Source: Myxococcaceae bacterium
Lineage (GTDB): Bacteria; Myxococcota; Myxococcia; Myxococcales; Myxococcaceae
DNA: 64,000 nt
NCBI GenBank assembly: GCA_016793095.1
Contig: JAEUJQ010000037.1
Location: 76,244-140,243, forward strand
Reading direction: 5' to 3'
The notes under the pieces are model-generated. The model searched no databases. It saw only the letters and a list, made by a program, of their open reading frames with translations, and was not told the origin of the DNA. Positions 29,508 to 45,148 of this stretch are shown one piece after another. Numbering within the stretch: position 1 is the first letter of the stretch; every line of letters begins with the position of its first letter. The position numbers were made by a program, and so were the translations under genes.

Positions 29508-30545
29508 ATGCGCGTGCTCGCGGTGACTGCGGCGGTGGTGGCGTTTTGGGTCGCCGCCGCCGCTCCCAACCCGAAGATCGGTGAGGGCCGCAAGCTGCTC
29601 GAAGACCTCGAGCTGGAGAAGGCGGCTCGCACGCTGGCGGCGGCCGAGTCGCAAGCTGGCAACGACCGCGCGCAGGTGCTCGAGATCCTCGAGCTGCAGG
29701 CAGTGGTGTACGGCACGATGAACAAGGAGGCGAAGGCCCGCGACGCGTTCCGCGAGCTGTTGACGCTCAACCCGGGCTTCAAGCTCCCGCCCGAGCACCC
29801 GCCGCGCGTGCGGACGCCGTTCTACGAAGCGAAGGAGTGGGTCGCGCAGAACGAGCCCCTGAAGCTCGAGCAGACCGCGACCACCGAGGCCGGCGTCACC
29901 ACGCTCACGCTCTCGGTGAAGAAGGACCTCCTGCGGCTCGTGAAGAAGGCGCGCTTCGTCTTGACGGACGGGCCGGCGCCCCAGGTTCGTGAGGCGGCGC
30001 TCGAGGCTGGCCTCGCGAAGACGACGGTGGAGGCTCCGAAGCTCGGGTGGACGATTCAGGTGCTGGGCGCCCGCGACGCCATCGTCATCGAGCTGGGGCC
30101 CTTCACGCACGAGGTGCCCACCGGCGCTCCGGTGTCGGTCGAGCAGACGAGGGCAGAGGGGAACGAGGGGGTTTCCACGGCCGCGTCCGCCCCGGCCTCG
30201 CCGTCGCCGCTGAGGCCTGTCGGGTACGCGCTCTTCGGAGCGGGGGTGGTCGCCGCAGGAGTCGGGGTGGTCTTCGGAGTGCTCGCGAACGGCGCGAGGG
30301 CGCGGGTGACCGGAGCGACGCAGGACGGGCAGGGGCTCATCACGTCGCTGACGCAACGGCAGGCGCAGACCCTGGAGCAGCAGGCGCGCTCGCAGGCGGT
30401 GCTCGCGAACGTGCTCTTCGGGGTCGGCGGGGCGCTCGCGGCCGCTGGCGTCGTGCTCTTCTTCGTGGGTGCGCCCACGTCGGAGGCTCCCGTGTCGCTG
30501 ACCATCGCGCCCGGCGGAGTCGTGGTGACCGGAGCGTTCCCATGA
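29508..30545 (+). CDS. Secreted TPR-like protein with C-terminal membrane anchor
   Basis: Signal peptide MRVLAVTAAVVAFWVAAAA. Helical TPR-like N-terminal region. C-terminal TM (VLFGVGGALAAAGVVLFFV). Its stop overlaps the next start. Confidence 0.65.
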   Translation: MRVLAVTAAVVAFWVAAAAPNPKIGEGRKLLEDLELEKAARTLAAAESQAGNDRAQVLEILELQAVVYGTMNKEAKARDAFRELLTLNPGFKLPPEHPPRVRTPFYEAKEWVAQNEPLKLEQTATTEAGVTTLTLSVKKDLLRLVKKARFVLTDGPAPQVREAALEAGLAKTTVEAPKLGWTIQVLGARDAIVIELGPFTHEVPTGAPVSVEQTRAEGNEGVSTAASAPASPSPLRPVGYALFGAGVVAAGVGVVFGVLANGARARVTGATQDGQGLITSLTQRQAQTLEQQARSQAVLANVLFGVGGALAAAGVVLFFVGAPTSEAPVSLTIAPGGVVVTGAFP

Positions 30546-32848
30546 AGGTCACCCTGCGCGCCACTCCACCCCTGCTCCTCGTCGCGTTCATCGCCTGCGA
30601 CAGCGGTCCCCTGGGCGTCGACCAGCGTCGCTTCAGTTGTCGGAGCGACGAGGACTGCATCGACGGCTTCGTCTGCGCGGACCGTGGCGACGGGCGGGAG
30701 TGCGTCCAGAGCGCAGCGGCCGGCGGCGGTACCACGGCAGGGGGCGGTGGAGGAAGCAGCGCAGGTGGAGACGCGGGAGGCAGCGCGGGCGGAGACGCAG
30801 GAGGCAGCGCGGGCGGAATCGCAGGAGGCAGCGCGGGCGGGGACGCAGGAGGCAGCGCGGGCGGGGACGCAGGAGGCAGCGCGGGCGGAGACGCAGGAGG
30901 CAGCGCGGGCGGCTCCGCAGGTGGCTCTGCAGGTGGCGGCGCGGGTGGCAGCGCGGGTGGCTCCGCAGGTGGCAGCGCGGGTGGCTCCGCAGGTGGCAGC
31001 AGCGCGGGCGGCTCCGCAGGTGGCAGCAGCGCGGGCGGCTCCGCAGGTGGCAGCGCGGGCGGCTCCGCAGGTGGCAGCGCGGGCGGCTCCGCAGGTGGCG
31101 CAGTCGGTCCGCCGACGCAGCTCGTCTTCTCGAATACGGCGCGGACCTTCCCGATCGCGACCTGCTCACCAGCCATCACCCTCGAGACGCGCGACGCGAT
31201 GGGTCGGGCGAGCCCGGTCAGCGCCGCCACCACCGTGACGCTCACCATCTCCTCGTCCGTGTCGCTGTACCTCTCGGCGAGCTGCGCCGGCTCGCCCCTT
31301 CCGACGATGCCGAGCCTCACCGTCTCGCTGACGGCGGGGAGCTCCCAGACGACGTTCTATGCGCGCGGCAGCTCGCCGGGCACCTTCGCGCTCACGGCGA
31401 CCGCGCCCACCTTCACGCCCGTGATGCAGAACGTCACGCTGCTCAACGGCCCCGACACGCTCGTCTTCACCAACGCGCCGCCTTCACCTCACCGCGCGGG
31501 TGACTGCTTCCCGCTCAGCTACCAGACCCAGCGCACGGGCAGCGCGAACCCGGTCGCGTCGAACACGAGCGTCGCCTTCGGCGTGAGCCCCAGCGGCGCC
31601 GCCCGCTACTACTCGGACGCGACCTGCACGACGCTCACCTCGTCGCAGATCATCCCCGGGGGCACGTCGACGGGCACCGTCTTCGTCCGCGTCTTGACGG
31701 GCGGGACGCCGGTGACGCTCCAGGCGAACGCGGGGCTCTTCACGCCGGCGTCTCGCGTGACGACGGCGCTGCCGATGGTGCGGCGTGGCGCGTGCACGTT
31801 CCCAGCCCAGTCCTGGATTGAACTCGACGGTGGCGTGGATGCTGGAGCCCTCGACGGCGGGGTGAGCCAGACGCTCAACCTCAACTGCGGGTTGTCGCCG
31901 TTGCCTGTCGATCTCACGAACACGATGCTCTTCATCCAGTCCTCGACGTCGGGGCCGTTCAGCGACGCGCTGATCAGGTGCCGACTCGGCGCCACGCCAG
32001 GTGACAGCCTGCGCTGCGTCCGCCGTGCTGGTGAAGCGGGCGCGTCGGTGAACTGGCAGGTCGTCGAGGTGCCCATGGGCGTTCGGGTGGCGACAGCCTC
32101 ATCCTCCAGCTGCCCGAGCGCCGTGACGTTGTCGGCGATGGTGGACCCCGCGAAGGCGTTCTTGTTGAAGACCCAGGCCAACTCCTCGACGGCGTTCGAT
32201 GATGAGGACCTCGTCGTGCTGACGCTGACCGGGCCGACGTCGGTGTCCCTGTCGCGGACGGACTGCCAGGGCATCGATGTGCAGGCCGTCGAATGGGAAG
32301 GCGTGACCGTGACGCGCGGCGTGCTCGACGGTGGGCTCGCGGCGCAGCGGACCTCCGGTTCGATTCTGGGGCTCACTCCCGCGACGACGCAGCGCGCGCT
32401 GCTGGCGCAGCCGGGCACGATGACGAACGGAGACCTGCCGATGTGCGGGGTTCTGGCGCGCGCGACGGCCCCTGGACCCGGCGAGGTCGCGTTCACGAGG
32501 GCCATGGGTGACGGTGGCTGCAGCACCAACGCGCTCGACCGCGTCGAGTTCGAGCGGCTCGACTTCGGCTCACGCGCCACCGTGCAGGAGCGCACGCTGA
32601 CCTTCAACCCGACCGTCAGCAACCTGGTCTCGACCATCACCGCCGTCGACCCCACCAGGACCTTCATCTTCGCGAGCAACCAGGGCGCCTTCGGGCAGAG
32701 CCTGGGAGAGACGTCGTCCCCCGTCTTCGCGTCGCCGCACGAGGCGACGTTCAGCTTCGATCTGACGACCCCGACGACGGTGACGGTGCGCCGGCCGAGG
32801 TCGGCCTCGACGGCGGCCGTGACCTTCTACGTCGTGCAGCTCGAGTAG
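30542..32848 (+). CDS. Lipoprotein with Cys-rich head and a long Gly/Ser/Ala/Asp repeat linker (768 aa)
   Basis: ATGA overlap with the upstream gene. LLLVAFIACDSG lipobox. About 115-aa (GGSAGGD)n/(GGSAGGSA)n tract encoded by tandem 21/24-bp DNA repeats. Beta-rich C-terminal region. Confidence 0.75.
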   Translation: MKVTLRATPPLLLVAFIACDSGPLGVDQRRFSCRSDEDCIDGFVCADRGDGRECVQSAAAGGGTTAGGGGGSSAGGDAGGSAGGDAGGSAGGIAGGSAGGDAGGSAGGDAGGSAGGDAGGSAGGSAGGSAGGGAGGSAGGSAGGSAGGSAGGSSAGGSAGGSSAGGSAGGSAGGSAGGSAGGSAGGAVGPPTQLVFSNTARTFPIATCSPAITLETRDAMGRASPVSAATTVTLTISSSVSLYLSASCAGSPLPTMPSLTVSLTAGSSQTTFYARGSSPGTFALTATAPTFTPVMQNVTLLNGPDTLVFTNAPPSPHRAGDCFPLSYQTQRTGSANPVASNTSVAFGVSPSGAARYYSDATCTTLTSSQIIPGGTSTGTVFVRVLTGGTPVTLQANAGLFTPASRVTTALPMVRRGACTFPAQSWIELDGGVDAGALDGGVSQTLNLNCGLSPLPVDLTNTMLFIQSSTSGPFSDALIRCRLGATPGDSLRCVRRAGEAGASVNWQVVEVPMGVRVATASSSSCPSAVTLSAMVDPAKAFLLKTQANSSTAFDDEDLVVLTLTGPTSVSLSRTDCQGIDVQAVEWEGVTVTRGVLDGGLAAQRTSGSILGLTPATTQRALLAQPGTMTNGDLPMCGVLARATAPGPGEVAFTRAMGDGGCSTNALDRVEFERLDFGSRATVQERTLTFNPTVSNLVSTITAVDPTRTFIFASNQGAFGQSLGETSSPVFASPHEATFSFDLTTPTTVTVRRPRSASTAAVTFYVVQLE
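30755..31106. repeat. In-frame tandem repeats (about 7 x 21 bp, then about 8 x 24 bp) encoding a Gly/Ser/Ala linker
   Basis: Direct reading: gcaggaggcagcgcgggcggagac units followed by ggctccgcaggtggcagcgcgggt units. Confidence 0.9.
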
Positions 32849-32949
32849 CGCCCGGGCCGTCGGGCAGCACGAGCGAGATTGCTGCTCGTCGTGCTCGACA
32901 GGCCGCCTCGCTGCGGCTTTGGTCTGCCCTCACCAACCCTGGAGGGGAC

Positions 32950-34617
32950 ATGACCCGACTGATGCTCGACTACCTCTACGACCACGAGTCCACCCGCGCC
33001 CAGCAGGTGTACCTGACCCAACCCCTCGGCGGCGGACAGGCGAGGGACTACACGTGGGCCCAGGTGATGAGCGAGGCGCGCAAGATGGCCGCGCACCTGC
33101 GCACGCTGGGCCTCTCGCCCGGCGACAAGGTGGCCATGCTGTCGAAGAACTGCGCCCACTTCTTCATCGCTGAGATCGCCATCTGGATGGCGGGCTACAC
33201 GACGGTCGCCATCTTCCCCACCGAGGGCCCGGACACCATCCGCTTCGTGCTCGAGCACTCGGACTCGAAGGTCCTCTTCGTCGGCAAGCTCGACAACTGG
33301 GCCTCGCAGGCGCCAGGCGTTCCCGCGCACCTCAAGCGCATCGCCTTCCCGCTCGGCCCGAAGAGCGACGACGCCGGCGACAAGTGGGACGACCTCGTGG
33401 CGAAGACCGCGCCGCTCGACGGCAAGCCAGCGCGTGACCCGAAGGACCTCGCGATGATCATCTACACCTCGGGCTCCACCGGGCAGCCCAAGGGCGTGAT
33501 GCACAGCTTCGAGCGCGCGACCGAGGCGACCCGACGCATCGTCGAGCGCATCAAGCTGGGCGACGGCGACCGGGCGCTCTCGTACCTGCCCCTCGCGCAC
33601 ATCTTCGAGCGCGCGTACATCGAGTGCGCGTCGATGCTGACCGGCGGCGCCCACATCTTCTTCGCCGAGTCGCTCGAGACCTTCGTCGCCGACCTCAAGC
33701 GCGCGCACCCGACGCTCTTCCTCTCGGTGCCCCGTCTCTGGCTCAAGTTCCAGCAGGGCGTCTTCACCAAGCTGCCCCCACAGCGCCTCGACCTCTTGCT
33801 CAAGCTGCCCATCATCAAGGGCCTCATCTCGAAGAAGGTCCTCACGGGCCTGGGCCTCGACGCCGTGCGCCTCGCTGGCAGCGGGTCGGCGCCCATTCCT
33901 GCCGAGCTCATCGCCTGGTACCGCCGCCTCGGCCTCAACCTGCTCGAGGGGTACGCGATGACCGAAGACTTCGCGGTCTCGCACCTGTCCACCGAGACGT
34001 TGAACGCGCCGGGCTACGTGGGCGTGCCGTACCCGGGCGTCGACGTGAAGATCACCGAAGAGGGAGAGGTGCTCATCAAGTCGCCGGGCACGATGGTGGG
34101 CTACTACAAGCGGCCCGATCTCGACGCCGAGGCCTTCTCCGCTGACGGCTTCTTCCGCACCGGTGACAAGGGCGAGCGACGCCCTGACGGCCTGCTCAAG
34201 CTGACCGGCCGCGTGAAGGAGCTCTTCAAGACGGCCAAGGGCAAGTACGTGTCGCCGGCGCCCATCGAGAACAAGCTGAACGAGCACGCGCTCATCGAGC
34301 TGTCGTGCGTGTCGGGGGTTGGCCAGCCGTCGGCCTTCGCGATGGTGGTGCTGGCCGAGGACATCCGCAAGACGCAGACGAGCCCCGAGACGCGCGCGCG
34401 GGTCGAGAAGGAGCTGGGCGAGTGGCTCAAGCAGGTGAACGCGGGGCTGTCGGCCTACGAGCAGCTGCAGATGCTCATCGTGATGCCGGGGCCATGGACC
34501 ATCGAAGAGGGCACGCTCACGCCGACGATGAAGCTCAAGCGCGCGAAGATCGAGGCGCTCATCGGGCCGAAGCAGGAAGGCTGGTTCGCCAACTCCGCGC
34601 CCGTGCAGTGGGCGTGA
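32950..34617 (+). CDS. AMP-dependent synthetase/ligase (long-chain acyl-CoA synthetase-like)
   Basis: YTSGSTGQPKGV, GYAMTE and LTPTMKLKR motifs. GGAGGGG RBS. Confidence 0.9.
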   Translation: MTRLMLDYLYDHESTRAQQVYLTQPLGGGQARDYTWAQVMSEARKMAAHLRTLGLSPGDKVAMLSKNCAHFFIAEIAIWMAGYTTVAIFPTEGPDTIRFVLEHSDSKVLFVGKLDNWASQAPGVPAHLKRIAFPLGPKSDDAGDKWDDLVAKTAPLDGKPARDPKDLAMIIYTSGSTGQPKGVMHSFERATEATRRIVERIKLGDGDRALSYLPLAHIFERAYIECASMLTGGAHIFFAESLETFVADLKRAHPTLFLSVPRLWLKFQQGVFTKLPPQRLDLLLKLPIIKGLISKKVLTGLGLDAVRLAGSGSAPIPAELIAWYRRLGLNLLEGYAMTEDFAVSHLSTETLNAPGYVGVPYPGVDVKITEEGEVLIKSPGTMVGYYKRPDLDAEAFSADGFFRTGDKGERRPDGLLKLTGRVKELFKTAKGKYVSPAPIENKLNEHALIELSCVSGVGQPSAFAMVVLAEDIRKTQTSPETRARVEKELGEWLKQVNAGLSAYEQLQMLIVMPGPWTIEEGTLTPTMKLKRAKIEALIGPKQEGWFANSAPVQWA

Positions 34618-34633
34618 GCTGACAGGAGCCCCC

Positions 34634-37600
34634 ATGCCGCTGCGCTCGCGGGTCGCCGCGCTGCTCTTCTTCTCGGGCGCGTGCGCCCTCGTCTACCAGG
34701 TGGCATGGCTCCGCGAGCTCCGGCTCATCTTCGGGGCCTCGACCGCGGCGTCGGCGGCGGTGCTCGCCATCTTCATGGGCGGGCTCGGCCTCGGCGGCGC
34801 GCTGCTGGGCCGGCGGGTGGACGCGAACCCGCAACCCCTGCGGCTGTACGCGAAGCTCGAGCTCGCGGTGGCCGGCGTGACGCTGGTGACGCCGGTGCTG
34901 GTGGGGCTCGCGCGCGCCGTCTACATCGCGGTGGGCGGCGCGGCGACGCTGGGCGACGTGGGCGCGACGCTGGCGCGGCTCGTGCTCGCGGTGCTGGTGC
35001 TGGGGGCGCCGACGTTCCTGATGGGGGGCACGCTGCCGGCTGCCGCGCGCGCCATCGAGACCGCTGGCGACAAGGGGCGCAGCGGCGTGGCGACGCTCTA
35101 CGGCGTCAACACCTTCGGCGCGGTGACGGGCGCGGTGCTGGCCAACTTCGTGCTCATCGAGGCGCTGGGGACCCGCCAGACGCTCTTCTTCGCGTGCGTC
35201 GTCAACGCCGTGGTGGCTGGCGTCGCCTGGCGCCTGTCGCAGGGCCTGGGCGCGGCCTCGAAGAGCGGGGCTCAGCCCGAGCAGGAAGACGACGTGGCCC
35301 CCTCGGCGCCGCCGCGCTTCGTCCTCGTCTCTGCGGGTGTCGTGGGCTTCGCCTTCTTCCTGATGGAGCTCGTCTGGTACCGCATGCTCGGGCCGCTCCT
35401 GGGCGGCAGCTCGTACACCTTCGGCCTCATCCTCGCGGTGGCGCTCGTCGGCATCGCGGTGGGTGGCGTGCTCTTCGCGGCAATGGGGCGGCAGCGCGCG
35501 CCCACCCTCACCTCGTTCGCCCTCACCTGCGCGGTCGAAGCGGCGCTCGTCATCATCCCCTTCGCGCTCGGGGACGAGGTGGCGCTGCTGGCGCTCTTCC
35601 TTCGCCCGCTGCGGGGCTTCGGCTTCCTGGGGCTCGTCGCGGCCTGGAGCGTGGTGGCGGCGCTGGTGGTGCTGCCGGCCGCCATCGTGTCGGGCTACCA
35701 GTTCCCGATGCTCATCGCGCTGCTGGGCAGCGGGAAGAAGAACGTCGGGCGCCACATCGGCAACGCGTACGCCGCGAACACCGTGGGCGCCATCGCCGGC
35801 TCACTGGCGGGGGGCTTCGGGTTGCTGCCGTTGCTCGGCGCCACGGGCTCGTGGCGGCTCGTGGCGGCGGTGCTGGCCGCGCTGGGCGCGAGCGCGGTGG
35901 GGCTGGCCCTTCGCGCGAAGACGCCCGTGCGTGCGTTCCTGGCCCCGGTGGCGTTCACCGCGGTGTCCGTCGCGCTGCTCTTCGCGACCGGTCCCACGGC
36001 GGCCTGGCGCCACAGCCCCATCGGGGTGGGCCGCGCCGACGACATCATCGCCCGGCCGTCCGAGGTCGCCGTCGAGAACTGGCTGCGCGCGTCGCGCGAC
36101 GGGATTCTGTGGGAGGCCGACGGGAGGGAGAGCTCGGTGGCCCTCAACGGCCGCCTCGGCATGGCCTTCATCGTGAACGGGAAGAACGACGGCAACGCGC
36201 GGAGCGACGCGGCGACGCAGGTCTTCTCGGGGTTGATGGGCGCGGCGCTCCACGCGGCGCCGAAGCGCGCGATGGTGGTCGGCCTCGGCACCGGCAGCAC
36301 CGCCGGGTGGCTCGGCGTCATCCCCGGCATGGAGTCAGTGGACGTGGTGGAGCTCGAGCCCGCCATCCTCCGCGTCGGCGATGACTGCACGCCGGTCAAC
36401 GCGGGGGTGATGAAGAACCCGAAGGTGCACCTGTCCATCGGCGACGCGCGCGAGGTGTTGCTCACCACGCGCGAGCAGTACGACATCGTCTTCTCGGAGC
36501 CGTCGAACCCGTATCGCGCCGGCATCTCGAGCCTCTACACGCGCGACTTCTACGAGGCGGTGAAGACGCGCCTGTCGTCGAAGGGCGTCTTCCTGCAGTG
36601 GCTGCAGGCCTACGAGGTTGACGCGACCGCGCTGCGCATCGCGATGACGACGCTCTCGAGCGTCTTCGCCCACGTCTCCGTGTGGACGACCCAGCAGGGC
36701 GACCTCATGCTCATCGCCACCGCCGAGCCGCTGACCATCGACGCACCCACCCTGCGCGCACGGCTCGAGACCGAGCCCTGGCGCAGCGCGATGGCGCACG
36801 TGTGGCGCGCGACCGGGCTCGAGACCTTCCTCGCGCACCACCTGGCCACGCCGCAGTTCACGAAAGGCATCGCGGACGAAGAGGGCCCGGGCCGCGTCAA
36901 CTCCGACGACCGCAACCTGCTCGAGTTCGCCTTCGCCGGCGCGGTGGGGCGGGGCGCGGGCTTCCCGGTCACCGACGTGTGGAACGCAGCGATGGCGAAG
37001 AAGGCCGACCGGCCCGCCGTCACCGGAGACGTCGATTGGGTGAAGGTGGCGGAGCGCCGCGCGCAGATCAGCCGGGTGCCGTTGCCGCGCGGCGTGTCGC
37101 TGAGCCCGCCCCGCGCCGCGATGCTGCGCGCCGTGTGGCGGCACGCGGCCGACGACCTGCAAGGCACGCTCGCTGCGCTCAAGAGCGACGAGGCCATCGG
37201 CTCCGAGACGCTGCTCGAGGCCGAGGCCGCGGCCGAGGCGTTCGCCGAGGTGGGCGACGCACGGGCGCTCACGCACCTCGAGCTGGTGCGCGCGCAGGAG
37301 CCGGTCGAGGCCGATGCGCTCGAGGCGCGCTACCTGCTGCGCAGCGGGAAGGCTGACGAGGCGTCGCAGAAGCTGGCCGCGGCGCTCGTCGCCTACCGGA
37401 GCGATCCGTGGCCACGCGCGCGGGTGATGTACCGGGCCATTCTGCTCGCCGGTGAGCTGGCCAACCTCGGTCCCCCGCACGCCGAGCGGCTCTTCGCGGC
37501 GCTCGAGAAGCCCTTCTCGGTGACGATGCACGACGGCGCGCGGCGCATGGCGCTGCTCGAGGTGGCGATGCGCCTCGACGGGACGAAGTGCGCGACCGCC

Positions 37601-37783
37601 GTCGCCCAGCTCGAGCCCCACTTCCCCTTCGAGCGCGGGCCGCTGGAGAAGCGCGTGGCGTGTCTCAAGCGCGGAGGAGCGGCCGCCGAGCTCGCCCGGG
37701 CCACCGCCGACCTGCAGCGCTTCGTCGCGGCCAGCCCCCCGCCCTTCGCGAGGTCGGGTGGAGGGACCGGCGACGGCGACTGA
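34634..37783 (+). CDS. Fused polytopic membrane (MFS-like) / spermidine-synthase-like aminopropyltransferase family protein (1049 aa)
   Basis: About 12 N-terminal TM helices. Spermidine-synthase-like GLGTGSTAGW and DIVFSEPSNP motifs. Long helical C-terminal tail. AGGAG RBS, 16 bp after the ligase gene. Confidence 0.85.
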   Translation: MPLRSRVAALLFFSGACALVYQVAWLRELRLIFGASTAASAAVLAIFMGGLGLGGALLGRRVDANPQPLRLYAKLELAVAGVTLVTPVLVGLARAVYIAVGGAATLGDVGATLARLVLAVLVLGAPTFLMGGTLPAAARAIETAGDKGRSGVATLYGVNTFGAVTGAVLANFVLIEALGTRQTLFFACVVNAVVAGVAWRLSQGLGAASKSGAQPEQEDDVAPSAPPRFVLVSAGVVGFAFFLMELVWYRMLGPLLGGSSYTFGLILAVALVGIAVGGVLFAAMGRQRAPTLTSFALTCAVEAALVIIPFALGDEVALLALFLRPLRGFGFLGLVAAWSVVAALVVLPAAIVSGYQFPMLIALLGSGKKNVGRHIGNAYAANTVGAIAGSLAGGFGLLPLLGATGSWRLVAAVLAALGASAVGLALRAKTPVRAFLAPVAFTAVSVALLFATGPTAAWRHSPIGVGRADDIIARPSEVAVENWLRASRDGILWEADGRESSVALNGRLGMAFIVNGKNDGNARSDAATQVFSGLMGAALHAAPKRAMVVGLGTGSTAGWLGVIPGMESVDVVELEPAILRVGDDCTPVNAGVMKNPKVHLSIGDAREVLLTTREQYDIVFSEPSNPYRAGISSLYTRDFYEAVKTRLSSKGVFLQWLQAYEVDATALRIAMTTLSSVFAHVSVWTTQQGDLMLIATAEPLTIDAPTLRARLETEPWRSAMAHVWRATGLETFLAHHLATPQFTKGIADEEGPGRVNSDDRNLLEFAFAGAVGRGAGFPVTDVWNAAMAKKADRPAVTGDVDWVKVAERRAQISRVPLPRGVSLSPPRAAMLRAVWRHAADDLQGTLAALKSDEAIGSETLLEAEAAAEAFAEVGDARALTHLELVRAQEPVEADALEARYLLRSGKADEASQKLAAALVAYRSDPWPRARVMYRAILLAGELANLGPPHAERLFAALEKPFSVTMHDGARRMALLEVAMRLDGTKCATAVAQLEPHFPFERGPLEKRVACLKRGGAAAELARATADLQRFVAASPPPFARSGGGTGDGD

Positions 37784-37799
37784 GCTATGACCAGGCTCC

Positions 37800-39485
37800 A
37801 TGCCTCGTCGAGTCACCACGCCGCAGGTCCCCGCCGTTCCTTCTCCCACGCCAGCGACGACGCCGTCCGTCAACGGCACCACCGCGACGCCCGCGACCAC
37901 CGCGGTGAGCGGCGTTCGCGACGCCTTCACCAGCTCGGCGGCGCCGGCCATCGAGACCGTCTTCACGCCCGGCAACCAGGCGCTGCAGATGGAGCTCAAG
38001 GAGCTCGACGCCATCATCAACGCGCGCCGGGCCGACGCCAGGCAGTTCGCCACTCCTGGCGAGAACCCGTACCGGATTCAGTACGCGGTCTACAACCTCA
38101 CTGATCCGCAGGTCATCGCGAAGCTGACCGAGGCCTCGCGCGCCGGCATTCACGTGCAGCTGCTCATCGACTCGGCGCAGATCGCGCCCGACCGGCCCTG
38201 GAACACGGTGGTGGACGAGCTCAAGAGCGCGGGCTTCTCGCACGCCGAGACGCACAAGGGGCTGACCGAGGCTCAACGCCGCGACACGCAGATCATCGAG
38301 ATCGACATGGGGCGGGGCCTCTTCCACCTGAAGGCCCGCACCTTCCGCTACCCGGACCCGCAGACCGGCGCGCTCAAGGAGACGCTCCTCACCGGCTCGC
38401 ACAACCCGCAGGAGTCGGCGCACAAGAACAACGAGAGCCTGCACCGCGTCACCGACCCGGGCCTCATCGCGAAGTACACGGCGGCCATCGAAGCGCTGAA
38501 GGCGGGCAAGCCGATTCAGAACTCGTGGGACGAGGCGGCGCCGGTCAACGTCCTCTTCACCTCGCCGACCGCGAAGGGCACCCGCGTCGCCGACAAGCTG
38601 TTCTCGATGATCCGCGACGAGAAGGAGCTCATCTTCATCTCCGTCTTCACCCTGCGGAACATCACCAACAGCGAAGGGCGGACGAAGCTGGTGGACGAGC
38701 TGGCCGCGGCGAAGGCGCGCGGGGTGAAGGTGACGGTGGTGACCGACCAGAAGCAGGCTGACGGCGTGGACGTGGACGGGAACCCGCGCCCCGACTCGAG
38801 CGACGACGACACCGAGGACCTGCTGCGCGCCGCCGGTATCCCCACGTACGAGGTGACGAACCGCGCGGGCCCGCACACCGCGATGCACCTCAAGTCAGCA
38901 GTCTTCGGCCTCACCGACATGAAGGTCGTCACCGACGCGGGCAACTGGACCTTCTCGGCCATGGGCAGCAAGGCGTCGAGGCCGAAGAACGCCGAGTCGG
39001 TGCTCTTCATCGACTCGAAGAAGGCCGACGGGAACAAGACGGGCATGCAGTACCTCGGCGAGTACCTCAGCATCCTGAGGCGCTACGCCCCGCAGAACCA
39101 CGGCGGCCCCGAGGTCGAGAACCTCATTCGCGACCTGCAGGCCACGCCGGGCTGGCCGAAGGTGAAGGTGAACTTCGACGTCATCGCGCGCACGAACTGG
39201 GGCCAGGACGTCTACCTCGTCGGGAACACCCCCGAGCTCGGCGGCTGGGGCCAGACCGGGCCGGGCCTCAAGCTCGACACCGACTCCAGCACGTACCCGT
39301 CGTGGAAGGCGAAGGACGTCGAGCTGCCGCTGGGCACGACGCTCGAGTACAAGGTCATCAAGCGCAACCCCGACGGCCGCATCGACTGGGAGCCCGGGCA
39401 GAACGCCGTGCTGGTCGTGGACAACTCGCGCACGCAGACGCCGAAGACGCTCGACGTCCGCGATGACTTCAACGGCGACAGTTGA
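37800..39485 (+). CDS. Phospholipase D-like (HKD) protein with C-terminal CBM20-like domain
   Basis: Two HxK...GSHN/GNWT motifs (FHLKARTF...GSHNPQES; MHLKSAVF). C-terminal WGQDVYLVGNTPELGGWG...LEYKVIK resembles a starch-binding domain. 16 bp after the upstream gene. Confidence 0.8.
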   Translation: MPRRVTTPQVPAVPSPTPATTPSVNGTTATPATTAVSGVRDAFTSSAAPAIETVFTPGNQALQMELKELDAIINARRADARQFATPGENPYRIQYAVYNLTDPQVIAKLTEASRAGIHVQLLIDSAQIAPDRPWNTVVDELKSAGFSHAETHKGLTEAQRRDTQIIEIDMGRGLFHLKARTFRYPDPQTGALKETLLTGSHNPQESAHKNNESLHRVTDPGLIAKYTAAIEALKAGKPIQNSWDEAAPVNVLFTSPTAKGTRVADKLFSMIRDEKELIFISVFTLRNITNSEGRTKLVDELAAAKARGVKVTVVTDQKQADGVDVDGNPRPDSSDDDTEDLLRAAGIPTYEVTNRAGPHTAMHLKSAVFGLTDMKVVTDAGNWTFSAMGSKASRPKNAESVLFIDSKKADGNKTGMQYLGEYLSILRRYAPQNHGGPEVENLIRDLQATPGWPKVKVNFDVIARTNWGQDVYLVGNTPELGGWGQTGPGLKLDTDSSTYPSWKAKDVELPLGTTLEYKVIKRNPDGRIDWEPGQNAVLVVDNSRTQTPKTLDVRDDFNGDS

Positions 39486-39492
39486 GCGCGCG

Positions 39493-41076
39493 ATGTCGAG
39501 GCTCCTGTTGCTGGTGACCATCTCCGGCGTCTTCGCCTGTGGAACCACGCCGACCCGTCCCTGCTCGGCGGCGTCCTGCCCGCTCGGCTGCTGCAGCGCA
39601 GGCCGGTGCGAGCCCGGCACGCTCCCGTCGGCGTGCGGAACGAACGGCGCCGCCTGCGTCACCTGTCGAACGGGAGATCAGTGCACCTTGAACCGGTGCA
39701 CGTCCGCGGGTGGCGGGAGTTCTGGCGGCTCCTCGGCTGGCGGCTCCGCGGCTGGCGGCTCCTCGGCTGGCGGCTCCTCGGCTGGCGGCTCCACGGCTGG
39801 CGGCTCCGCGGCTGGCGGCTCCGCGGCTGGCGGCTCCACGGCTGGCGGCTCCGCGGCTGGCGGCTCCGCGGGTGGCGGCAGCGCGGGGGGCATGGCGGGA
39901 GGTGGTGCTGCGCGACGGTGGGCGAACCTGCAGTGGCCCCCCTGGGCGACCCTCGACGCCGGGGCGAGCCTGACGATGTACGGGCAGGTCTGGGTCGAGG
40001 GACGCACGGGCAGCGTCGGCGCGACGCCCGGACTCAGCGGAGAGGTGGGCTTCGGTCCTCACGGCACCCGGCCTGACGACCCGGACGCTGGCTGGAGCTG
40101 GCAGAGCACGACCTTCAACGTGGACGTCGGAAACAACGACGAGGTGCAGGGACCCGTGACGCCGCTGACGCCCGGCGTGTGGGACGTCGCGTTCCGCATG
40201 CGGCTGCCGGCGGCTTTCGCGGGAGCGGTCTTCGGCGACCGGAGCGACCGCGGCCGGGTCGGCAGCGACGACGGCTATCAGACGGAGAACGCAGGCCGGC
40301 TCGTGGTGCCCGGCCCGGGCGCGCGGCTCGAGGTCGCGAGCCTCAACCTCCAGTGCCTCACCGGTGACGTGGCGGCACGGCTCGACGCCGCGGCGCAGCG
40401 GTTCGCACAGCTCGGCACCGACGTCATCGCGCTGCAGGAGGTCTGTGTCCCGGCTCAAGACGCGGGCGTGACCGACACCGCTGAGATGCTCGCTGGCCTC
40501 CTCAGCACGCGCACGGGCCGACGCTGGACGAGCCGCTTCGCCTTCACGCACCTCGCGAACAACGTGACGCCCGAGGGCCTGGGCCTGGTGACGGCGCTGC
40601 CGCTGAGTGAGCTGCAGGTCATCGACCTGCCCGTGGGGGACTTCCAGCGGCGCGCCCTCATCGGCGTCGTCGCGTCCTCCGTCGGCATGGTCGCGGTGGC
40701 GGCGACCCACTTCTCGTTCCGCACCCAGGACGCGCAGGTGCGGGTCGCGCAGGCGAACGCCATCGTCACCGCCCTCGGCCAGTTGATGCCCGCCACGCCG
40801 CGCCAGTTGGTGCTCGGTGACCTGAACGCGATTCCCACCGAGGCCTGCCACGACGTCTTCCGCATGGCGGGCTTCGTCGATGCATGGAACGCAGTGCACC
40901 CCTCCCTCCCCGGCTTCACGCACACGAGCACGAGCCCCACCCGGCGCATCGACTACGTGTGGGCGCGAGGTCCGCTCGACGCGGTCGCGGCGGAGACCCA
41001 GTTCGGCGCCCCCTTCCGCGGTACCGAGTACGTGTCGGATCACCTCGGCCTGACCGTGGAGTTCTCGACGCGCTGA
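39493..41076 (+). CDS. EEP-family lipoprotein with Cys-rich head and Gly/Ser/Ala linker
   Basis: MSRLLLLVTISGVFACG lipobox. About 12 Cys in the first 60 aa. (AGGSx)n linker. EEP motifs DVIALQEV, GDLNAIP, RIDYVWA, SDHLGL. Confidence 0.8.
   Translation: MSRLLLLVTISGVFACGTTPTRPCSAASCPLGCCSAGRCEPGTLPSACGTNGAACVTCRTGDQCTLNRCTSAGGGSSGGSSAGGSAAGGSSAGGSSAGGSTAGGSAAGGSAAGGSTAGGSAAGGSAGGGSAGGMAGGGAARRWANLQWPPWATLDAGASLTMYGQVWVEGRTGSVGATPGLSGEVGFGPHGTRPDDPDAGWSWQSTTFNVDVGNNDEVQGPVTPLTPGVWDVAFRMRLPAAFAGAVFGDRSDRGRVGSDDGYQTENAGRLVVPGPGARLEVASLNLQCLTGDVAARLDAAAQRFAQLGTDVIALQEVCVPAQDAGVTDTAEMLAGLLSTRTGRRWTSRFAFTHLANNVTPEGLGLVTALPLSELQVIDLPVGDFQRRALIGVVASSVGMVAVAATHFSFRTQDAQVRVAQANAIVTALGQLMPATPRQLVLGDLNAIPTEACHDVFRMAGFVDAWNAVHPSLPGFTHTSTSPTRRIDYVWARGPLDAVAAETQFGAPFRGTEYVSDHLGLTVEFSTR
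39711..39905. repeat. In-frame tandem 15-bp repeats (about 12 copies) encoding (S/A)AGGS linker
   Basis: gctggcggctccNcg units read directly. Confidence 0.85.
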
Positions 41077-41162
41077 CCTCGGCGCGCCGGCTCCGGCGTG
41101 ACGGAGCGGGGCATGCTCGCGAGGGCGCGCTGGCCCGAGGGGGGCCTTCCCCGGCCGTCCAC

Positions 41163-41345
41163 CGACCTCACCATCGGCGACGTCCACTGGCTGAAGGTGG
41201 CCGAGCGCGAGGTGAACCGCGTGCAGCGCCCTCGTGGCCGAGCCGACCGCACCTGGACTGCTGCACGCCGGGTGGCAGCACGCGGCAGACGACCTGCCCG
41301 GCACGCTCGCCGCGTTGAAGGCGGACGAGGCCATCGTGTCCAGCA
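41163..41345 (+). pseudogene. Degenerate, frameshifted partial copy of codons about 37021-37205 of the spermidine-synthase-like gene
   Basis: Nucleotide and peptide similarity: AVWRHAADDLQGTLAALKSDEAIGSE versus AGWQHAADDLPGTLAALKADEAIVSS, and DVDWVKVAERRAQISRVPLPRG versus DVHWLKVAEREVNRVQRPRG, with a frame switch near 41235. Similarity is lost after 41345. Confidence 0.5.
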
Positions 41346-41476
41346 CGCCGCGCGACGCCGAGCGGGCCGTACACGGCGACCGTCACCGTCCCCTTGAGGG
41401 AGCGGCGGCCGAGGGGTGCAGCCTGAGCGCCTGGGCAGGCGGGGTAGCTCCGGTTCGGTGGCGCGGGCGGCGGTCT

Positions 41477-41854
41477 TCACCGCGACGCCGGGGGCCGCAG
41501 GTCGGCGAGCGCCTGGTCGACGTCGATGGTCGGGTCCGGCGTGAGGCTGATGACGAGGTCCTGCCTGCTGGGGACGACCTCGACGCGTACGCCCACCGTC
41601 GCCGGGCGCACCAGCGCTGTCCTGCGCCACAGCCGCCAGCCTCCATCGGGCGTCATCGCCTCGAGCTGGCCGAGCCACGCCCCCGGCACGCCACCCGACA
41701 CGACACGCCACCGCAGGAGCGAGGGGCTGCACGCCTCGAGGCGCTCGCCGGGCGCGTCGCTCAACGCGGTCAGCTCCCAGCCCTTCCATGGCTCGCAGGG
41801 CGCGACCTTCGGACAGCCGGACAAGGCGGGGACGAGCAGGAGCCAGCGCATCAT
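41477..41854 (-). CDS. Small lipoprotein (125 aa)
   Basis: MMRWLLLVPALSGC lipobox at the protein-like 3' end of an otherwise antisense-to-pepN ORF. Weak RBS. Confidence 0.5.
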   Translation of the reverse strand: MMRWLLLVPALSGCPKVAPCEPWKGWELTALSDAPGERLEACSPSLLRWRVVSGGVPGAWLGQLEAMTPDGGWRLWRRTALVRPATVGVRVEVVPSRQDLVISLTPDPTIDVDQALADLRPPASR

Positions 41855-41899
41855 CGAGACGATGCCGCACCGGCGGCCGGTGCTGCTACATCTCCCGCC

Positions 41900-44566
41900 A
41901 TGCTGAAGGACGCCACGCCGAAGACCATTCGCCTGTCCGAGTACCGCCCGCCCGACTTCGCCATCGAGCGCGTCGCCCTCACCTTCGACCTCGACGTGGA
42001 CCGCACCGAGGTCGAGGCCGAGCTCGTCTTCCGACGCCTCGGCGGCCTGGGTCCGCTCGTGCTCGACGGCGCCGACGACGCCGAAGGTTCGGGCCAGCTG
42101 CTCTCGCTGCGCATCGACGGCGTGGAGCCACCGGCCAGCGCGTTCACCGTCTCCGAGAACGGGCTCACCCTGCACGCCCCGAAGGACCGGTTCACGCTGA
42201 CGACCCGCCGCCGCCTGACGCCGTCGAAGAACAAGAGCCTCGAGGGCCTCTACGCCTCGGCGAGCGGGCTCTACACGCAGTGCGAGGCCGAGGGCTTCCG
42301 GAAGATCACCTGGTACCTCGACCGCCCCGACGTGATGAGCGTCTTCACCGTCACCCTGCGCGCCGACCCCGAGCGCTTCCCGGTGCTGCTCAGCAACGGC
42401 AACAAGGTGAGCGAGCGCGACGAGGTGGTGAACGGCCAGCGCCGGCGCGTGGCCGTGTGGCACGACCCGTTCAAGAAGCCCTGCTACCTCTTCGCCGTCG
42501 TCGCGGCGGACCTGGTGGCGCGCAAGGGCTCGTTCACCACCAGGAGCGGCCGCGCCGTCGAGCTCAACGTCTGGGTGCAGCCGCACGACCTCGACCAGAC
42601 GGCGCACTGCCTCGACAGCCTCGTCAAGTCGATGAGCTGGGACGAGACGCGCTTCGGCCGCGAGTACGACCTCGACGTCTTCAACCTCGTCGCCGTGTCG
42701 GACTTCAACATGGGCGCGATGGAGAACAAGGGCCTCAACGTCTTCAACACGAAGTTCGTGCTCGCCCGCCCCGACACCGCGACCGACGTGGACTTCGCGA
42801 ACATCGAGGGCGTCGTCGGCCATGAGTACTTCCACAACTGGTCGGGCAACCGCGTCACCTGCCGCGACTGGTTCCAGCTCTCGCTGAAGGAGGGCTTCAC
42901 GGTCTTCCGCGACCAGGAGTTCTCGAGCGACGTCGGCTCGCGCGCGGTGAAGCGCATCGAAGAGGTGCGGCGCCTGCGCAGCCTGCAGTTCCCCGAGGAC
43001 CAGGGACCGACGGCGCACCCGGTGCGACCCGATAGCTACGTCGAGATCTCCAACTTCTACACCGTCACCATCTACGAGAAGGGCGCCGAGGTGGTGCGCA
43101 TGTACCTCACGCTGCTCGGCGAGGAGGCCTTCCGCCGCGGCACCGACCTCTACTTCTCGCGGCACGACGGCCAGGCCGTGACGACCGACGACTTCCTCGC
43201 GTGCATGGCCGAGGTGAGCGGCCGCGACTTCCGCCAGTTCAAGCGCTGGTACTCGCAAGCCGGGACGCCGCGGGTGAGCGCGCGCGGAGCCTGGGACGAG
43301 CCCACGAAGACGTGGACGCTCACGCTCTCGCAGACGGTGCCGCCGACGCCGGATCAGCCGAGGAAGGAGCCGATGCACATCCCCGTCGTCACCGCACTGC
43401 TGGGGCGCGACGGCAAGCGGCTGCCGCTGGTCGTGAACGGCGAGCGGCGCGGCGTCGAGACCGTGCTCGAGCTCACCACCGACGAGGAGCGCTTCGCCTT
43501 CACCGGCCTGTCCGAGAAGCCGGTGCCGTCGCTCCTGCGGGGCTTCTCGGCGCCGGTGCAGCTCGAGACTGACGACGACGAGGCCGCCATCCTCTTCCGG
43601 CTCGCTCACGACGACGACGCCTTCAACCGCGTCGAGGCCGGCCAGGAGCTGTTCTTCCGGCACCTCTTCGCGAACGTCGCCGCGCTGCAGGCGGGCGGGG
43701 CACTGACCGAGCCTTCGACGGCGCTCGTCGATGCCGTGAAGACCGCGCTCGCGACCTCGCTCGAGCAGGGAGACCCGGCGTTGCTCGCCCTCGCGCTCTC
43801 GGTGCCAGGCATCGACCTCATCGGCGACCGGCTGCCGTGGGCGGACTACGCGAACGCCTTCCTCGCGCGCGAGCACCTCGTCACGGCGCTCGCCTCCACG
43901 CTCAGGCCCCTCATCAGCGACGTTGACGCGCACCTCTCGAAGGGCCTCGACGGAGCGCCGTACCGCTTCACCCCCGACGACGTGGGCCGCCGCAGCCTGC
44001 GCAACCTGATGGTGTCGTGGCGCGCGCGCCTGCCGGACGGAGAGCACCACGTCGTGGGCCACCTCCGCCGCGCCGGCTGCATGACCGACACCCAGGCCGC
44101 CCTCGCGCTGCTCGCGAACACCGAGAGCCGCGCACGCGACGAGGCGTTCGCCGCCTTCTACGCGCAGTGGAAGGGCGAGGCGCTCATGGTGGACAAGTGG
44201 TTCACCATGCAGGCCATGAGCACGCGGGCGCGGGCGCTCGACGATGTGCTCACGCTCACGACCCACGAGGCCTTCACGCTCGAGAACCCCAACCGCGCGC
44301 GCTCGGTCATCGCGTCGTTCGGCATGGCGAACCCGCTGCGCTTCCACGAGGCGTCGGGGCGCGGCTACGTCTTCCTGGCCGAGCAGGTGCGGGCCCTCGA
44401 CGTCTTCAACGCGCAGATCGCCGCCCGGTTGATGACGCCGCTGACGCGCTGGAAGCGGCAGGACCCGCCGCGGCAGGCGCTCATGAAGCGCGAGCTGCAG
44501 CGCATCCTCGACCGGGAGGGCTGCAGCAAGGACGTGTACGAGATCGCGACGAAGTCGTTGGCCTGA
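41900..44566 (+). CDS. pepN: Aminopeptidase N (M1 family)
   Basis: GAMENKGLNVFN and HEYFHNWSGN motifs with a PepN-like N-terminus (IRLSEYRPPDF). 888 aa. Confidence 0.92.
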   Translation: MLKDATPKTIRLSEYRPPDFAIERVALTFDLDVDRTEVEAELVFRRLGGLGPLVLDGADDAEGSGQLLSLRIDGVEPPASAFTVSENGLTLHAPKDRFTLTTRRRLTPSKNKSLEGLYASASGLYTQCEAEGFRKITWYLDRPDVMSVFTVTLRADPERFPVLLSNGNKVSERDEVVNGQRRRVAVWHDPFKKPCYLFAVVAADLVARKGSFTTRSGRAVELNVWVQPHDLDQTAHCLDSLVKSMSWDETRFGREYDLDVFNLVAVSDFNMGAMENKGLNVFNTKFVLARPDTATDVDFANIEGVVGHEYFHNWSGNRVTCRDWFQLSLKEGFTVFRDQEFSSDVGSRAVKRIEEVRRLRSLQFPEDQGPTAHPVRPDSYVEISNFYTVTIYEKGAEVVRMYLTLLGEEAFRRGTDLYFSRHDGQAVTTDDFLACMAEVSGRDFRQFKRWYSQAGTPRVSARGAWDEPTKTWTLTLSQTVPPTPDQPRKEPMHIPVVTALLGRDGKRLPLVVNGERRGVETVLELTTDEERFAFTGLSEKPVPSLLRGFSAPVQLETDDDEAAILFRLAHDDDAFNRVEAGQELFFRHLFANVAALQAGGALTEPSTALVDAVKTALATSLEQGDPALLALALSVPGIDLIGDRLPWADYANAFLAREHLVTALASTLRPLISDVDAHLSKGLDGAPYRFTPDDVGRRSLRNLMVSWRARLPDGEHHVVGHLRRAGCMTDTQAALALLANTESRARDEAFAAFYAQWKGEALMVDKWFTMQAMSTRARALDDVLTLTTHEAFTLENPNRARSVIASFGMANPLRFHEASGRGYVFLAEQVRALDVFNAQIAARLMTPLTRWKRQDPPRQALMKRELQRILDREGCSKDVYEIATKSLA

Positions 44567-44569
44567 GCG

Positions 44570-45025
44570 ATGTCCTCCACGTCGCGGGCGACGACGCTCT
44601 ACCGATGGATGCCGGTGCTGCTCGCCGCGCTGCCGGTCCTCCTGTGCCTCGCGAGCGGGCTCGTTCGCCGCGCCTTCCCACCCCCGCCTCCAGAGCCCTT
44701 TCCGCGCCTGCTCATCCCCGGGGGCGCGGCGTTCCTCTCGAAGGACGCTGGCGAGTCCGAGCACTGCTACGCGCACACCGTCGCCCGCGTGGGTCCCGTG
44801 TCGTCCGACGCCGCCGCGAGCTGGGCGAAGCGCCTCGACCTGCCCTGTGACGCCGACGTCGACGGCGGCGCTCCGTGTCCCGCGTGGTCGACCGCGCACC
44901 GCAAGGATCGGTCCTGGGGCCATGAGCAGGACGAGCCCGACGGCCTCGACACGGTGCAGGCGCGGCTCGACGGCACCACGCTGGTCGTGGACTGGGGTGA
45001 CTACCTCTGCGCCGGGCCGCTGTGA
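44570..45025 (+). CDS. Small secreted hypothetical protein (151 aa, 4 Cys)
   Basis: 3 bp after the pepN stop. Hydrophobic N-terminus MPVLLAALPVLLCLASGL. High GC3. Confidence 0.55.
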   Translation: MSSTSRATTLYRWMPVLLAALPVLLCLASGLVRRAFPPPPPEPFPRLLIPGGAAFLSKDAGESEHCYAHTVARVGPVSSDAAASWAKRLDLPCDADVDGGAPCPAWSTAHRKDRSWGHEQDEPDGLDTVQARLDGTTLVVDWGDYLCAGPL

Positions 45026-45148
45026 CGCCGCGCCGGCCTCACGTCCACCTCGCGCACGACACGTTGGCGAGCAGCACCTCGTCTGCGGCTAGCAACGAGG
45101 CGCCAGCAGCCAGCGCCCAGCCAGACCGCGACATGCGTCGCGAGCGAC

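Follow-up and report, generated by a model that had tools for sequence, protein, structure and literature searches.

Within a 64,000-nucleotide stretch of a Myxococcaceae bacterium contig (the window), four plus-strand genes, g1–g4, follow one another so closely that the question arises of whether they serve a single function. A preliminary description took them for one lipid-related pathway. Its coordinates were confirmed, with intergenic gaps of 16, 16 and 7 bp, as were its domain assignments, by matches to AMP-binding in g1, NF037959 in g2, PLDc_2 and CBM_20 in g3, and Exo_endo_phos in g4. The genes and their immediate neighbours are the following:

30539–32848, plus strand: upstream lipoprotein gene without a Pfam match, from its translation, 101 bp from g1
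32950–34617, plus strand: g1, AMP-forming acyl-CoA-synthetase-like adenylating enzyme, 555 aa (Pfam AMP-binding, 234.8 bits)
34634–37783, plus strand: g2, polytopic membrane domain, spermidine-synthase-fold domain and helical C-terminal region of about 350 aa, 1049 aa in total (NF037959)
37800–39485, plus strand: g3, double-HKD PLD-superfamily enzyme, 561 aa (Pfam PLDc_2 and CBM_20)
39493–41076, plus strand: g4, lipoprotein EEP phosphoesterase, 527 aa (Exo_endo_phos, 58.2 bits)
41477–41857, minus strand: small convergent lipoprotein gene, orthologue of a 128-aa gene in the related locus L062, which closes the plus-strand unit before pepN

Co-transcription of g1–g4 is plausible from their arrangement, because the gaps are short, contain no terminator and leave no room for a promoter of g3 itself; the four genes thus combine a common strand, short gaps and the lack of an internal terminator, as in an operon. 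No terminator-like site was found in the three gaps, and the frequency of such sites was not above that in shuffled sequences. The regulatory-signal scan found no sigma-70-like sites, the Rfam search gave no match and none of the intergenic RNA folds was significant. The 101-bp spacer between the upstream lipoprotein gene and g1 holds a GC-rich hairpin, the fold of 32846–32950 not being significant (z = −1.56), and the ATG of g1 is preceded by GGAGG, 8 nt upstream. The coding status of g1–g3 is backed by a third-position GC of 0.87–0.95, a filter that g4 failed. The ORF of g4 opens at 39463 and stops at 41076; the start that gives it a lipoprotein-type N-terminus is at 39493 (ATG; MSRLLLLVTISGVFAC), and the alternative ATG at 39463 would produce a 23-bp overlap with g3. 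Downstream, the small lipoprotein gene is the tail of a minus-strand ORF (41477–44923), as compared with the translation of L062 8367–8753, and the coding signal of pepN begins near 41900.

The products of g1 and g2 belong to broad families. The top NCBIfam matches of g1 are FadD11 and long-chain FACS, both far under their equivalog cut-offs (215.8 against 950 bits for FadD11), and its matches in the PDB are CAR A-domains and ttLC-FACS. By score, g2 is a member of the fused MFS/spermidine synthase family (NF037959, score 119 bits, cut-off 40), of which no characterised member was found in the literature searched. About 12–14 hydrophobic segments are present in residues 1–457, and the more than 4000 homologues are conserved over the full length. 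The Rossmann-like domain aligns with SpeE (E = 3e-10), including G-x-G-x-G and the acidic nucleotide-binding positions, but an E-P-S-N-P motif, invariant in 14 homologues, occupies the position of D-L-T-D-P in SpeE, replacing the catalytic D-x-x-D-P, and g2 is extended at its C-terminus by a conserved region of about 350 aa. A role as a SpeE polyamine aminopropyltransferase was rejected on the absence of this catalytic motif and on scores far below the cut-offs of all SpeE equivalog models.

Gene order was surveyed in genome contigs retrieved with a g3 profile (61 loci), in metagenome contigs retrieved with a g2 profile (80 loci) and by exact-protein context look-ups. The four-gene block was absent from every related locus examined. 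Neither g1 nor g2 adjoins g3 in any of the 50 g3 loci whose upstream sequence reaches 4 kb or more, and none of g1, g3 and g4 lies near g2 in 83 more distant g2 loci. Orthologues of g1 adjoin g2 only in the closest relatives, L062 (amino-acid identity to the window of 94% for g1, 90% for g2 and 94% for both pepN and ileS) and L151 (87%); this adjacency is missing in L063 (83%), L065 and the 80 metagenome loci. The relatives at 87–90% do not carry g3–g4 after g2, and g3–g4, as an independent pair, occurs without g1 or g2 throughout the 61 genome loci as well as in L149, L150 and L152.

These data bear directly on the reading of the block as a true lipid-remodelling operon, in which g1 would activate a fatty acid, g2 would build or export an aminopropylated amphiphile, and g3 and g4 would trim phosphodiester head groups. 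Such an operon is very improbable: conserved synteny of g1–g4 was found nowhere, g1–g2 and g3–g4 occupy separate loci in close relatives, g2 lacks the aminopropyltransferase motif, and neither g3 nor g4 matches any NCBIfam cardiolipin synthase, PLD or sphingomyelinase model at E ≤ 0.01. The single pathway of the preliminary description, which had been staked on orthologues being syntenic in related genomes, is not supported, as the block is syntenic in none of those examined.

A smaller unit does recur. An EEP gene adjoins g3 in 17 of the 61 loci, co-oriented and downstream in 12 of them, and is not beside it in the other 44, some of whose contigs are too short to judge; in the closer clade, with g3 at least 45% identical, the two are adjacent in 10 of 14 evaluable loci. 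The genes overlap by 4 bp in L066 and L068, and the pair extends, with a 4-bp overlap, to Bradymonadaceae at 41% identity. When the ORFs flanking g3 were clustered all against all, only the EEP, a second PLD paralogue and generic kinases/histidine kinases recurred; the EEP is the sole recurrent partner of g3 beyond generic kinases. It is this repeated adjacency that defines g3–g4 as a two-gene module.

The boundaries of the module in the window can be placed by comparison with its relatives, and two further features are involved:

37784–41476, no strand: 3.7-kb segment absent from L062 (blastn)
41172–41362, plus strand: degenerate partial copy of g2 (codons ~797–864) with a shifted frame, a direct repeat of 37021–37225

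By blastn, L062 3463–8361 matches window positions 32893–37784 and L062 8387–11910 matches 41497–45027. The spacer at this point in L062 is 6 bp, between the stop of g2 and the stop of the convergent small lipoprotein gene, and the order there is kinase–ACS–SpdSyn, small minus-strand gene and pepN, with no g3 or g4. In L151 (g2 87%) homology to the window likewise ends at the g2 stop. The complementary segment, window positions 37798/9–41077/8, aligns with L004, L150, L149, L152 and L001 at 77–92% nucleotide identity between unrelated flanks, the homology running from the ATG of g3 to the stop of g4; the cassette lies between bestrophin and PTS-IIB genes in L149 and has SpoIIE-STAS upstream in L152. 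The decayed g2 fragment (73% over 206 nt by blastn, with blastx matches in two frames, and recovered by the repeat search too) looks like the scar of a rearrangement, and would indicate that one occurred, not its direction. The difference would reflect a gain in the window, although loss of the cassette from L062 and L151 could account for it equally. A search around the cassette for signatures of a mobile element gave neither terminal inverted repeats nor IS-like features, but only the degenerate direct repeat derived from g2.

The best explanation, which we consider likely, is that the four-gene block is an evolutionary mosaic, brought together recently and carrying a self-contained g3–g4 module, rather than one pathway. 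In this mosaic, g1 and g2 would be neighbours only within this genus-level lineage, and g3–g4 would be an independent two-gene module conserved from Myxococcaceae to Bradymonadales. In the lineage of the window, the module would have been placed into the convergent spacer of a few base pairs between g2 and the small lipoprotein gene, where read-through from g1–g2 probably provides its transcription today.

What the module might do was approached through its two proteins. From the N-terminus, g3 consists of a disordered Pro/Thr-rich segment, the PLD part and a CBM20 domain, and its Pfam matches are well above the cut-offs (PLDc_2, 76.9 bits in two stretches against 27; CBM_20, 80 bits against 23.3). 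All 26 sequences compared share residues H176, K178, G199, S200, N202, N210, E212, H363, K365, N382, N397 and E399 without exception. As in PLD (HKD) enzymes of the Nuc/NucT and PLD3/PLD4 types, two HKD halves lie in one chain, with the His, the Lys, G-S-x-N and a downstream N-x-E. The protein belongs to the superfamily but has not kept the Asp of HxK(x)4D; it stands apart also in its identity to the solved members (11–16%), in an insertion of about nine residues between HxK and GSxN of motif 1, and in the added C-terminal CBM20 and disordered N-terminus, and it reaches no equivalog model. The predicted model (pLDDT 85.5) matches the fold of the PLD 7e0m, PLD3/4, F13, PPK1 and Tdp1 (Foldseek E of 1e-14 to 1e-10 against PLD-family structures). 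The best match is a PLD, at only 15% identity and level with nucleases, and such structure searches, for g3 as for g4, cannot separate nuclease, lipase and phosphatase subfamilies. A defence-system assignment was discarded, as PADLOC gave only weak DrmC matches that reflect the generic PLD fold.

The CBM20 aligns to the starch-binding domain of Aspergillus niger glucoamylase (E = 4.6e-15), which places it among the modules of that family. Its ligand residues W483, W502, K518, W530 and N535, which we take to be equivalent to W543, W563, K578, W590 and N595 of glucoamylase, are kept in 19–22 of 26 homologues, and both predicted α-glucan binding sites are apparently intact. None of the 58 g3 proteins of the window's own clade has a signal peptide; among more distant homologues, 34 of 49 are lipoprotein-like by a simple pattern rule. 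Because the g3 proteins of the window's clade lack a signal peptide, g3 and g4 may not share a compartment.

For g4, the preliminary assignment as a lipoprotein holds, the lipobox lying in MSRLLLLVTISGVFAC with its Cys at residue 16, after the positively charged n-region and hydrophobic core typical of bacterial lipoproteins; the simple pattern rule also classes 16 of its 28 homologues as lipoprotein-like. The signal peptide and lipobox are followed by a Cys-rich stretch, a (GGSAG)n linker, a β-sandwich domain and the EEP domain, two of these elements being distinct features of the gene:

39677–39921, plus strand: linker repeat of g4, 15-nt tandem, 12 registers, encoding a Gly/Ser/Ala linker (repeat search)
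39910–40329, plus strand: β-sandwich domain of g4, belonging to a large repeat family without a Pfam model

Relatives align with one another over the whole cassette except for the linker repeat (blastn gaps at window positions 39700–39910). By sequence, the N-terminal β-sandwich has no PDB match, and its Pfam matches are faint and under cut-off. The EEP domain retains its catalytic residues and combines the Pfam match, the four-layer α/β sandwich and the N, E, D, N, D, D-H set of that superfamily. The g4 family is rare, with 40 matches in 5.8 billion proteins. Compared with ExeM/NucH, TDP2, neutral and bacterial sphingomyelinases and uncharacterised EEPs of Bacteroides and Leptotrichia (3g6s, 3teb, 3mpr and 4ruw), g4 has 16–26% identity, and it is distinguished from them by the lipoprotein anchor, the Cys-rich segment, the low-complexity linker and the N-terminal β-sandwich.

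Mechanistically, g3 is expected to be a metal-independent double-HKD enzyme that would act through a covalent phospho-histidine intermediate while tethered by its CBM20. For g4 the expectation is an EEP enzyme dependent on Mg2+, joined to its lipoprotein anchor through a flexible linker and an E-set-type β-sandwich. The two would act outside the cytoplasm, on envelope or polymer surfaces, where a substrate that is polymeric or bound to a surface would be cut at its phosphodiester or phosphomonoester bonds; the CBM20 would steer g3 to α-glucan. Any ranking of substrates is much less certain than the claims of a mosaic and of an independent module.

Nucleic acid is the foremost candidate, though a tentative one. 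The pair would then be secreted or surface nucleases digesting prey or matrix DNA/RNA, with g3 a Nuc/PLD3-like exo- or endonuclease, g4 an ExeM/NucH- or TDP2-like enzyme, and the binding modules serving as anchors only. The only non-generic sequence matches of g3 point in this direction, namely NucT (E = 1.7e-9), DrmC (E = 7e-10) and Nuc (1byr; E = 5.5e-4), as do the presence of the 5′ exonucleases PLD3 and PLD4 among its top folds, the sole NCBIfam match of g4 (the ExeM/NucH DNase model, E = 1.3e-4) and the confinement of the g3 family almost entirely to Myxococcota and Bradymonadales. However, all the nuclease matches are far under family cut-offs, both proteins are acidic (pI 6.1 for g3 and 5.4 for g4), no DNA-binding domain was detected in them, and it is not obvious what a nuclease would do with a CBM20 whose starch-binding sites are intact; we regard this reading as possible at best.

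Membrane phospholipid is an unlikely substrate. It would make g3 and g4 envelope phospholipases, a PLD and a sphingomyelinase-C- or PLC-like EEP, that attack prey membranes or remodel the bacterium's own outer membrane. The top 50 Foldseek matches of g4 include no bacterial sphingomyelinase, and uncharacterised EEPs and TDP2 score above the sphingomyelinases. Lipid-specific families give no match at the sequence level, no NCBIfam model of a lipid-acting PLD subfamily being reached by g3 at E ≤ 0.01, and the immunity-like gene typical of lipase effectors is not adjacent. The link to lipids proposed earlier for g3 and g4 is likewise not borne out by their nearest neighbours in sequence and structure, which are generic PLD and EEP superfamily members, nucleases included.

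A phosphorylated α-glucan or another phospho-glycopolymer is a comparably doubtful candidate, suggested by the CBM20. Several eukaryotic enzymes carry this module: laforin with a dual-specificity phosphatase, GDE5/GPCPD1 with a GDPD and PWD/GWD3 with a dikinase. Like them, g3 joins a starch-binding CBM20 with its ligand residues kept to a phosphate-ester enzyme; it differs in having an HKD fold instead of the DSP, GDPD or dikinase, in being bacterial, in the C-terminal position of the CBM20 and in its pairing with a second phosphoesterase gene. In its most speculative form, this reading might make g3–g4 a glycan-targeted phosphoesterase system that has gone unrecognised in predatory Myxococcota and Bradymonadales. 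It would strip phosphodiester and phosphomonoester groups from α-glucans or other phospho-glycopolymers, for example glycogen or starch in phosphorylated form, phosphoglycans or polymers resembling teichoic acid, and its cassette would relocate without a transposase.

The two-gene module is undescribed in the literature searched, in which nothing on point was found for CBM20 with PLD or for myxobacterial PLDs or nucleases in predation. For annotation, the locus illustrates that genes cannot be assigned to one pathway from their close packing alone, since a 3.7-kb cassette in a 6-bp spacer made an apparent four-gene operon. For the organisms, g3–g4 is a conserved pairing of an HKD enzyme bearing an apparently functional CBM20 with a lipoprotein EEP, almost confined to two predatory lineages, and the β-sandwich of g4 exposes a very large family of surface-protein repeats without a Pfam model. 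If the two enzymes are nucleases or lipases, they would be additions to the catalogue of predation enzymes. If the CBM20 directs phosphoester hydrolysis to α-glucan, they would represent a new route for phosphorylated polysaccharides and, should the glycan-targeted reading be true, a functional counterpart of laforin/SEX4 in bacteria, with catalytic folds wholly different from theirs.

The four plus-strand ORFs g1–g4 lie in 71% GC DNA with ordinary chromosomal surroundings (a PEGA-domain Ser/Thr kinase, pepN and ileS). Their coordinates confirm the spacing in the preliminary description, 16, 16 and 7 bp with the g4 start set at ATG 39493, and the profile matches uphold its domain calls:

~30539–32848, + strand: lipoprotein gene without Pfam match, 101 bp before g1
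32950–34617, + strand: g1, AMP-binding ligase (Pfam AMP-binding, 234.8 bits)
34634–37783, + strand: g2, fused membrane/spermidine-synthase-fold protein (NF037959, “fused MFS/spermidine synthase”, 119 bits vs a cut-off of 40)
37800–39485, + strand: g3, phospholipase-D-superfamily (PLD) protein (two PLDc_2 halves and CBM_20, 80 bits)
39463/39493–41076, + strand: g4, endonuclease/exonuclease/phosphatase (EEP) protein (Exo_endo_phos, 58.2 bits)
39910–40329, in g4 (residues ~140–279): β-sandwich without Pfam model
41172–41362: decayed, frame-shifted copy of g2 codons ~797–864 (C-terminal coding region), a direct repeat of 37021–37225
41477–~41857, − strand: small convergent lipoprotein gene between g4 and pepN

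Third-position GC of 0.87–0.95 indicates that g1–g3 are coding. The three gaps contain no terminator-like hairpins, and an Rfam search found no element. The small convergent gene, whose orthologue is a 128-aa gene in the metagenomic locus L062, is masked by long spurious ORFs on each strand; the coding signal of pepN begins near 41900, its true start, the ORF having been listed from 41234. The g3 protein is 100% identical to JNJ54_14780, a hypothetical protein of a “Myxococcaceae bacterium” MAG, with the g4 match on the same 204-kb contig. The lipoprotein gene upstream of g1 is built like g4, with a long (GGSAG)n linker behind a Cys-rich stretch, and L062 has a region that cross-matches the repeat DNA of this gene.

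The proposal that these genes form one lipid-related operon does not agree with the gene order in relatives. A profile of 26 g3 homologues, searched against species-representative genomes, gave 61 loci (50 with at least 4 kb upstream), nearly all from Myxococcota or Bradymonadales MAGs. A tblastn screen of these loci with every protein of the window placed no homologue of g1 or g2 next to g3 at any of the 61; the sole similar matches were a ligase of 22% identity, 7 kb off on the opposite strand (L026), and a SpdSyn-like fragment of 28%, 9 kb off (L032). Conversely, no g1-like ligase, PLD or EEP gene was found near distant g2 genes in 80 metagenome loci and L063–L065. A genuine four-gene lipid pathway is therefore very improbable, and the earlier interpretation is partly supported, its annotation being right and its pathway not.

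The closest relatives show where the block is joined. L062 has the order of the window, with g1 (94%), g2 (90%), pepN (94%) and ileS (94%), and there 6 bp separate the g2 stop from that of the small convergent lipoprotein gene. By blastn, L062 3463–8361 corresponds to window 32893–37784 and L062 8387–11910 to 41497–45027, so that window 37784–41476, comprising g3, g4 and ~400 bp, is an indel in that spacer. Homology to L151 (g1 87%, g2 87%) likewise ends with the stop codon of g2, beyond which L151 carries another gene. The g3–g4 pair (the cassette) aligns to L004, L150, L149, L152 and L001 at 77–92% nucleotide identity, from window 37798/9, 2 nt 5′ of the g3 ATG, to 41077/8, at the g4 stop, with unrelated flanks. 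In L149, whose contig stems from the metagenome sample that also yielded L062, it is flanked by bestrophin and enoyl-CoA hydratase genes and, at the other end, by PTS IIB/IIA. In L152 it lies downstream of a SpoIIE phosphatase and STAS, and the Archangium MAG L004, which matches L150, provides a third context. In the window, the cassette is bracketed by the degenerate direct repeat, with the g2 copy just 3′ of g4. This copy looks like the scar of a rearrangement and is its sole trace found; a repeat search around the cassette revealed neither an IS nor an inverted-repeat signature. The juxtaposition belongs to the window lineage alone, whether by insertion here or by loss elsewhere, and a local rearrangement created the “four-gene operon” as a by-product.

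The two cassette genes do keep company elsewhere. A g4-type EEP gene stands beside g3 in 17 of the 61 loci (12 downstream on the same strand, 5 adjoining on the opposite strand), and in 10 of the 14 evaluable loci whose g3 is at least 45% identical. Because the g4 family is small (40 matches), this pairing is far beyond chance. Gene calls place a 4-bp overlap between g3 and g4 in L066 (Myxococcales) and L068 (Bradymonadaceae), and in L067 a second PLD–CBM20 paralogue lies between g3 and the EEP gene. Second PLD paralogues occur at 11 loci; clustering of all flanking ORFs gave no other recurrent neighbours beyond generic kinases and histidine kinases. The block is probably a mosaic in which g3–g4 forms an independent conserved module. 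A divergent second PLD (~25–31% identity) was seen beside g3 in L003, L014, L021–L023, L033, L038, L045, L051, L052, L059 and L067. A scaffold labelled Herbiconiux (Actinomycetota; L060) carries a g3 homologue of 38% identity (10001–11446) ~3 kb from ileS (3683–6793), which could reflect horizontal transfer or a mis-binned contig.

The g2 family is very large, with more than 4000 matches; its members belong to Myxococcota and Acidobacteriota, cultured Myxococcus and Archangium among them. The protein has ~12–14 hydrophobic segments, and conservation extends along all 1050 aa, averaging 61% column identity across 14 homologues. Its spermidine-synthase-fold domain lacks the aminopropyltransferase motif: where SpeE has the catalytic D-x-x-D-P (D-L-T-D-P in T. 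thermophilus), g2 has E-P-S-N-P (window 36494–36514, residues ~621–627), invariant in the 14 homologues. Tandem g2-family genes occur on metagenome contigs L086, L092 and L108.

The g3 model (pLDDT 85.5) comprises a disordered, Pro/Thr-rich segment (residues 1–46, pLDDT <50), a two-lobed PLD fold (~50–450) and the CBM20 (454–556). Among 26 homologues there is no variation at H176, K178, G199, S200, N202, N210 and E212 or at H363, K365, N382, N397 and E399, and each half-site looks competent. An alignment of the CBM20 with the starch-binding domain of Aspergillus glucoamylase (E 4.6e-15) shows counterparts of the residues of sites 1 and 2 (W483, K518, W530, N535; W502, Y499), assigned by the glucoamylase reference numbering. 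They are kept in 19–22 of the 26 homologues, and the module looks intact. In their targeting signals the g3 homologues (P0001–P0107) divide sharply, which makes localisation a puzzle. None of the 58 close-clade g3 proteins (at least 45% identity), window protein included, has a signal sequence; their N-termini are disordered and Pro/Thr-rich (window 37800–37940), and the 5′ side of g3 leaves no space for an earlier start. Among more distant homologues (<45%), 34 of 49 are lipoprotein-like, and g4 is lipoprotein-like in both clades.

In g4, ATG 39493 opens a textbook lipoprotein leader, MSRLLLLVTISGVFAC, in accord with the lipoprotein call of the preliminary description. Behind the lipobox come a Cys-rich region, a (GGSAG)n linker whose coding DNA is a 15-nt tandem repeat, the 135-aa β-sandwich and the EEP domain, whose catalytic set is complete and invariant in the homologue alignment (model pLDDT 93.4). 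The β-sandwich belongs to a very large repeat family (P0268–P0416 among its proteins): with a threshold of E ≤ 1e-3, an exhaustive profile search gave 3511 representative proteins that contain it, often in arrays, which reach 31 tandem copies in chains 4–7 thousand residues long. Its partners (TIG, LTD, cohesin, TSP3, FlgD_ig and MopE-type motifs) read as the grammar of extracellular proteins, and g4 combines a lipoprotein-type leader with an extracellular-type architecture.

Superfamily membership is clear for each protein (PLD/HKD, CBM20, EEP, NF037959, ANL adenylating enzymes); none of g1–g4 reached an equivalog-level match in NCBIfam. A structure search with g3 gave similar scores across the superfamily (bacterial PLD 7e0m, the 5′-exonucleases PLD3/4, vaccinia F13, PPK1 and Tdp1), and its only sub-threshold sequence matches were NucT, DrmC and Nuc; nucleic acid is a possible, tentative substrate of the pair, and membrane phospholipid a rather unlikely one. 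A phosphorylated glucan or phospho-glycopolymer is a similarly slim candidate. A literature search returned no description of a bacterial PLD–CBM20 fusion or a g3–g4-type pairing. As background, the eukaryotic CBM20–phosphoesterase fusions laforin and GDE5 are the nearest conceptual precedents. Judging from the alignments, g3 and g4 both keep their catalytic residues. The cassette would be expressed here by read-through from g1–g2, as suggested by the 16-bp gap and by homology that begins 2 nt before the g3 ATG. Both proteins would have an extracytoplasmic role, acting on the phosphoester bonds of a substrate that is polymeric or surface-bound, and the CBM20 may dock g3 to α-glucan.
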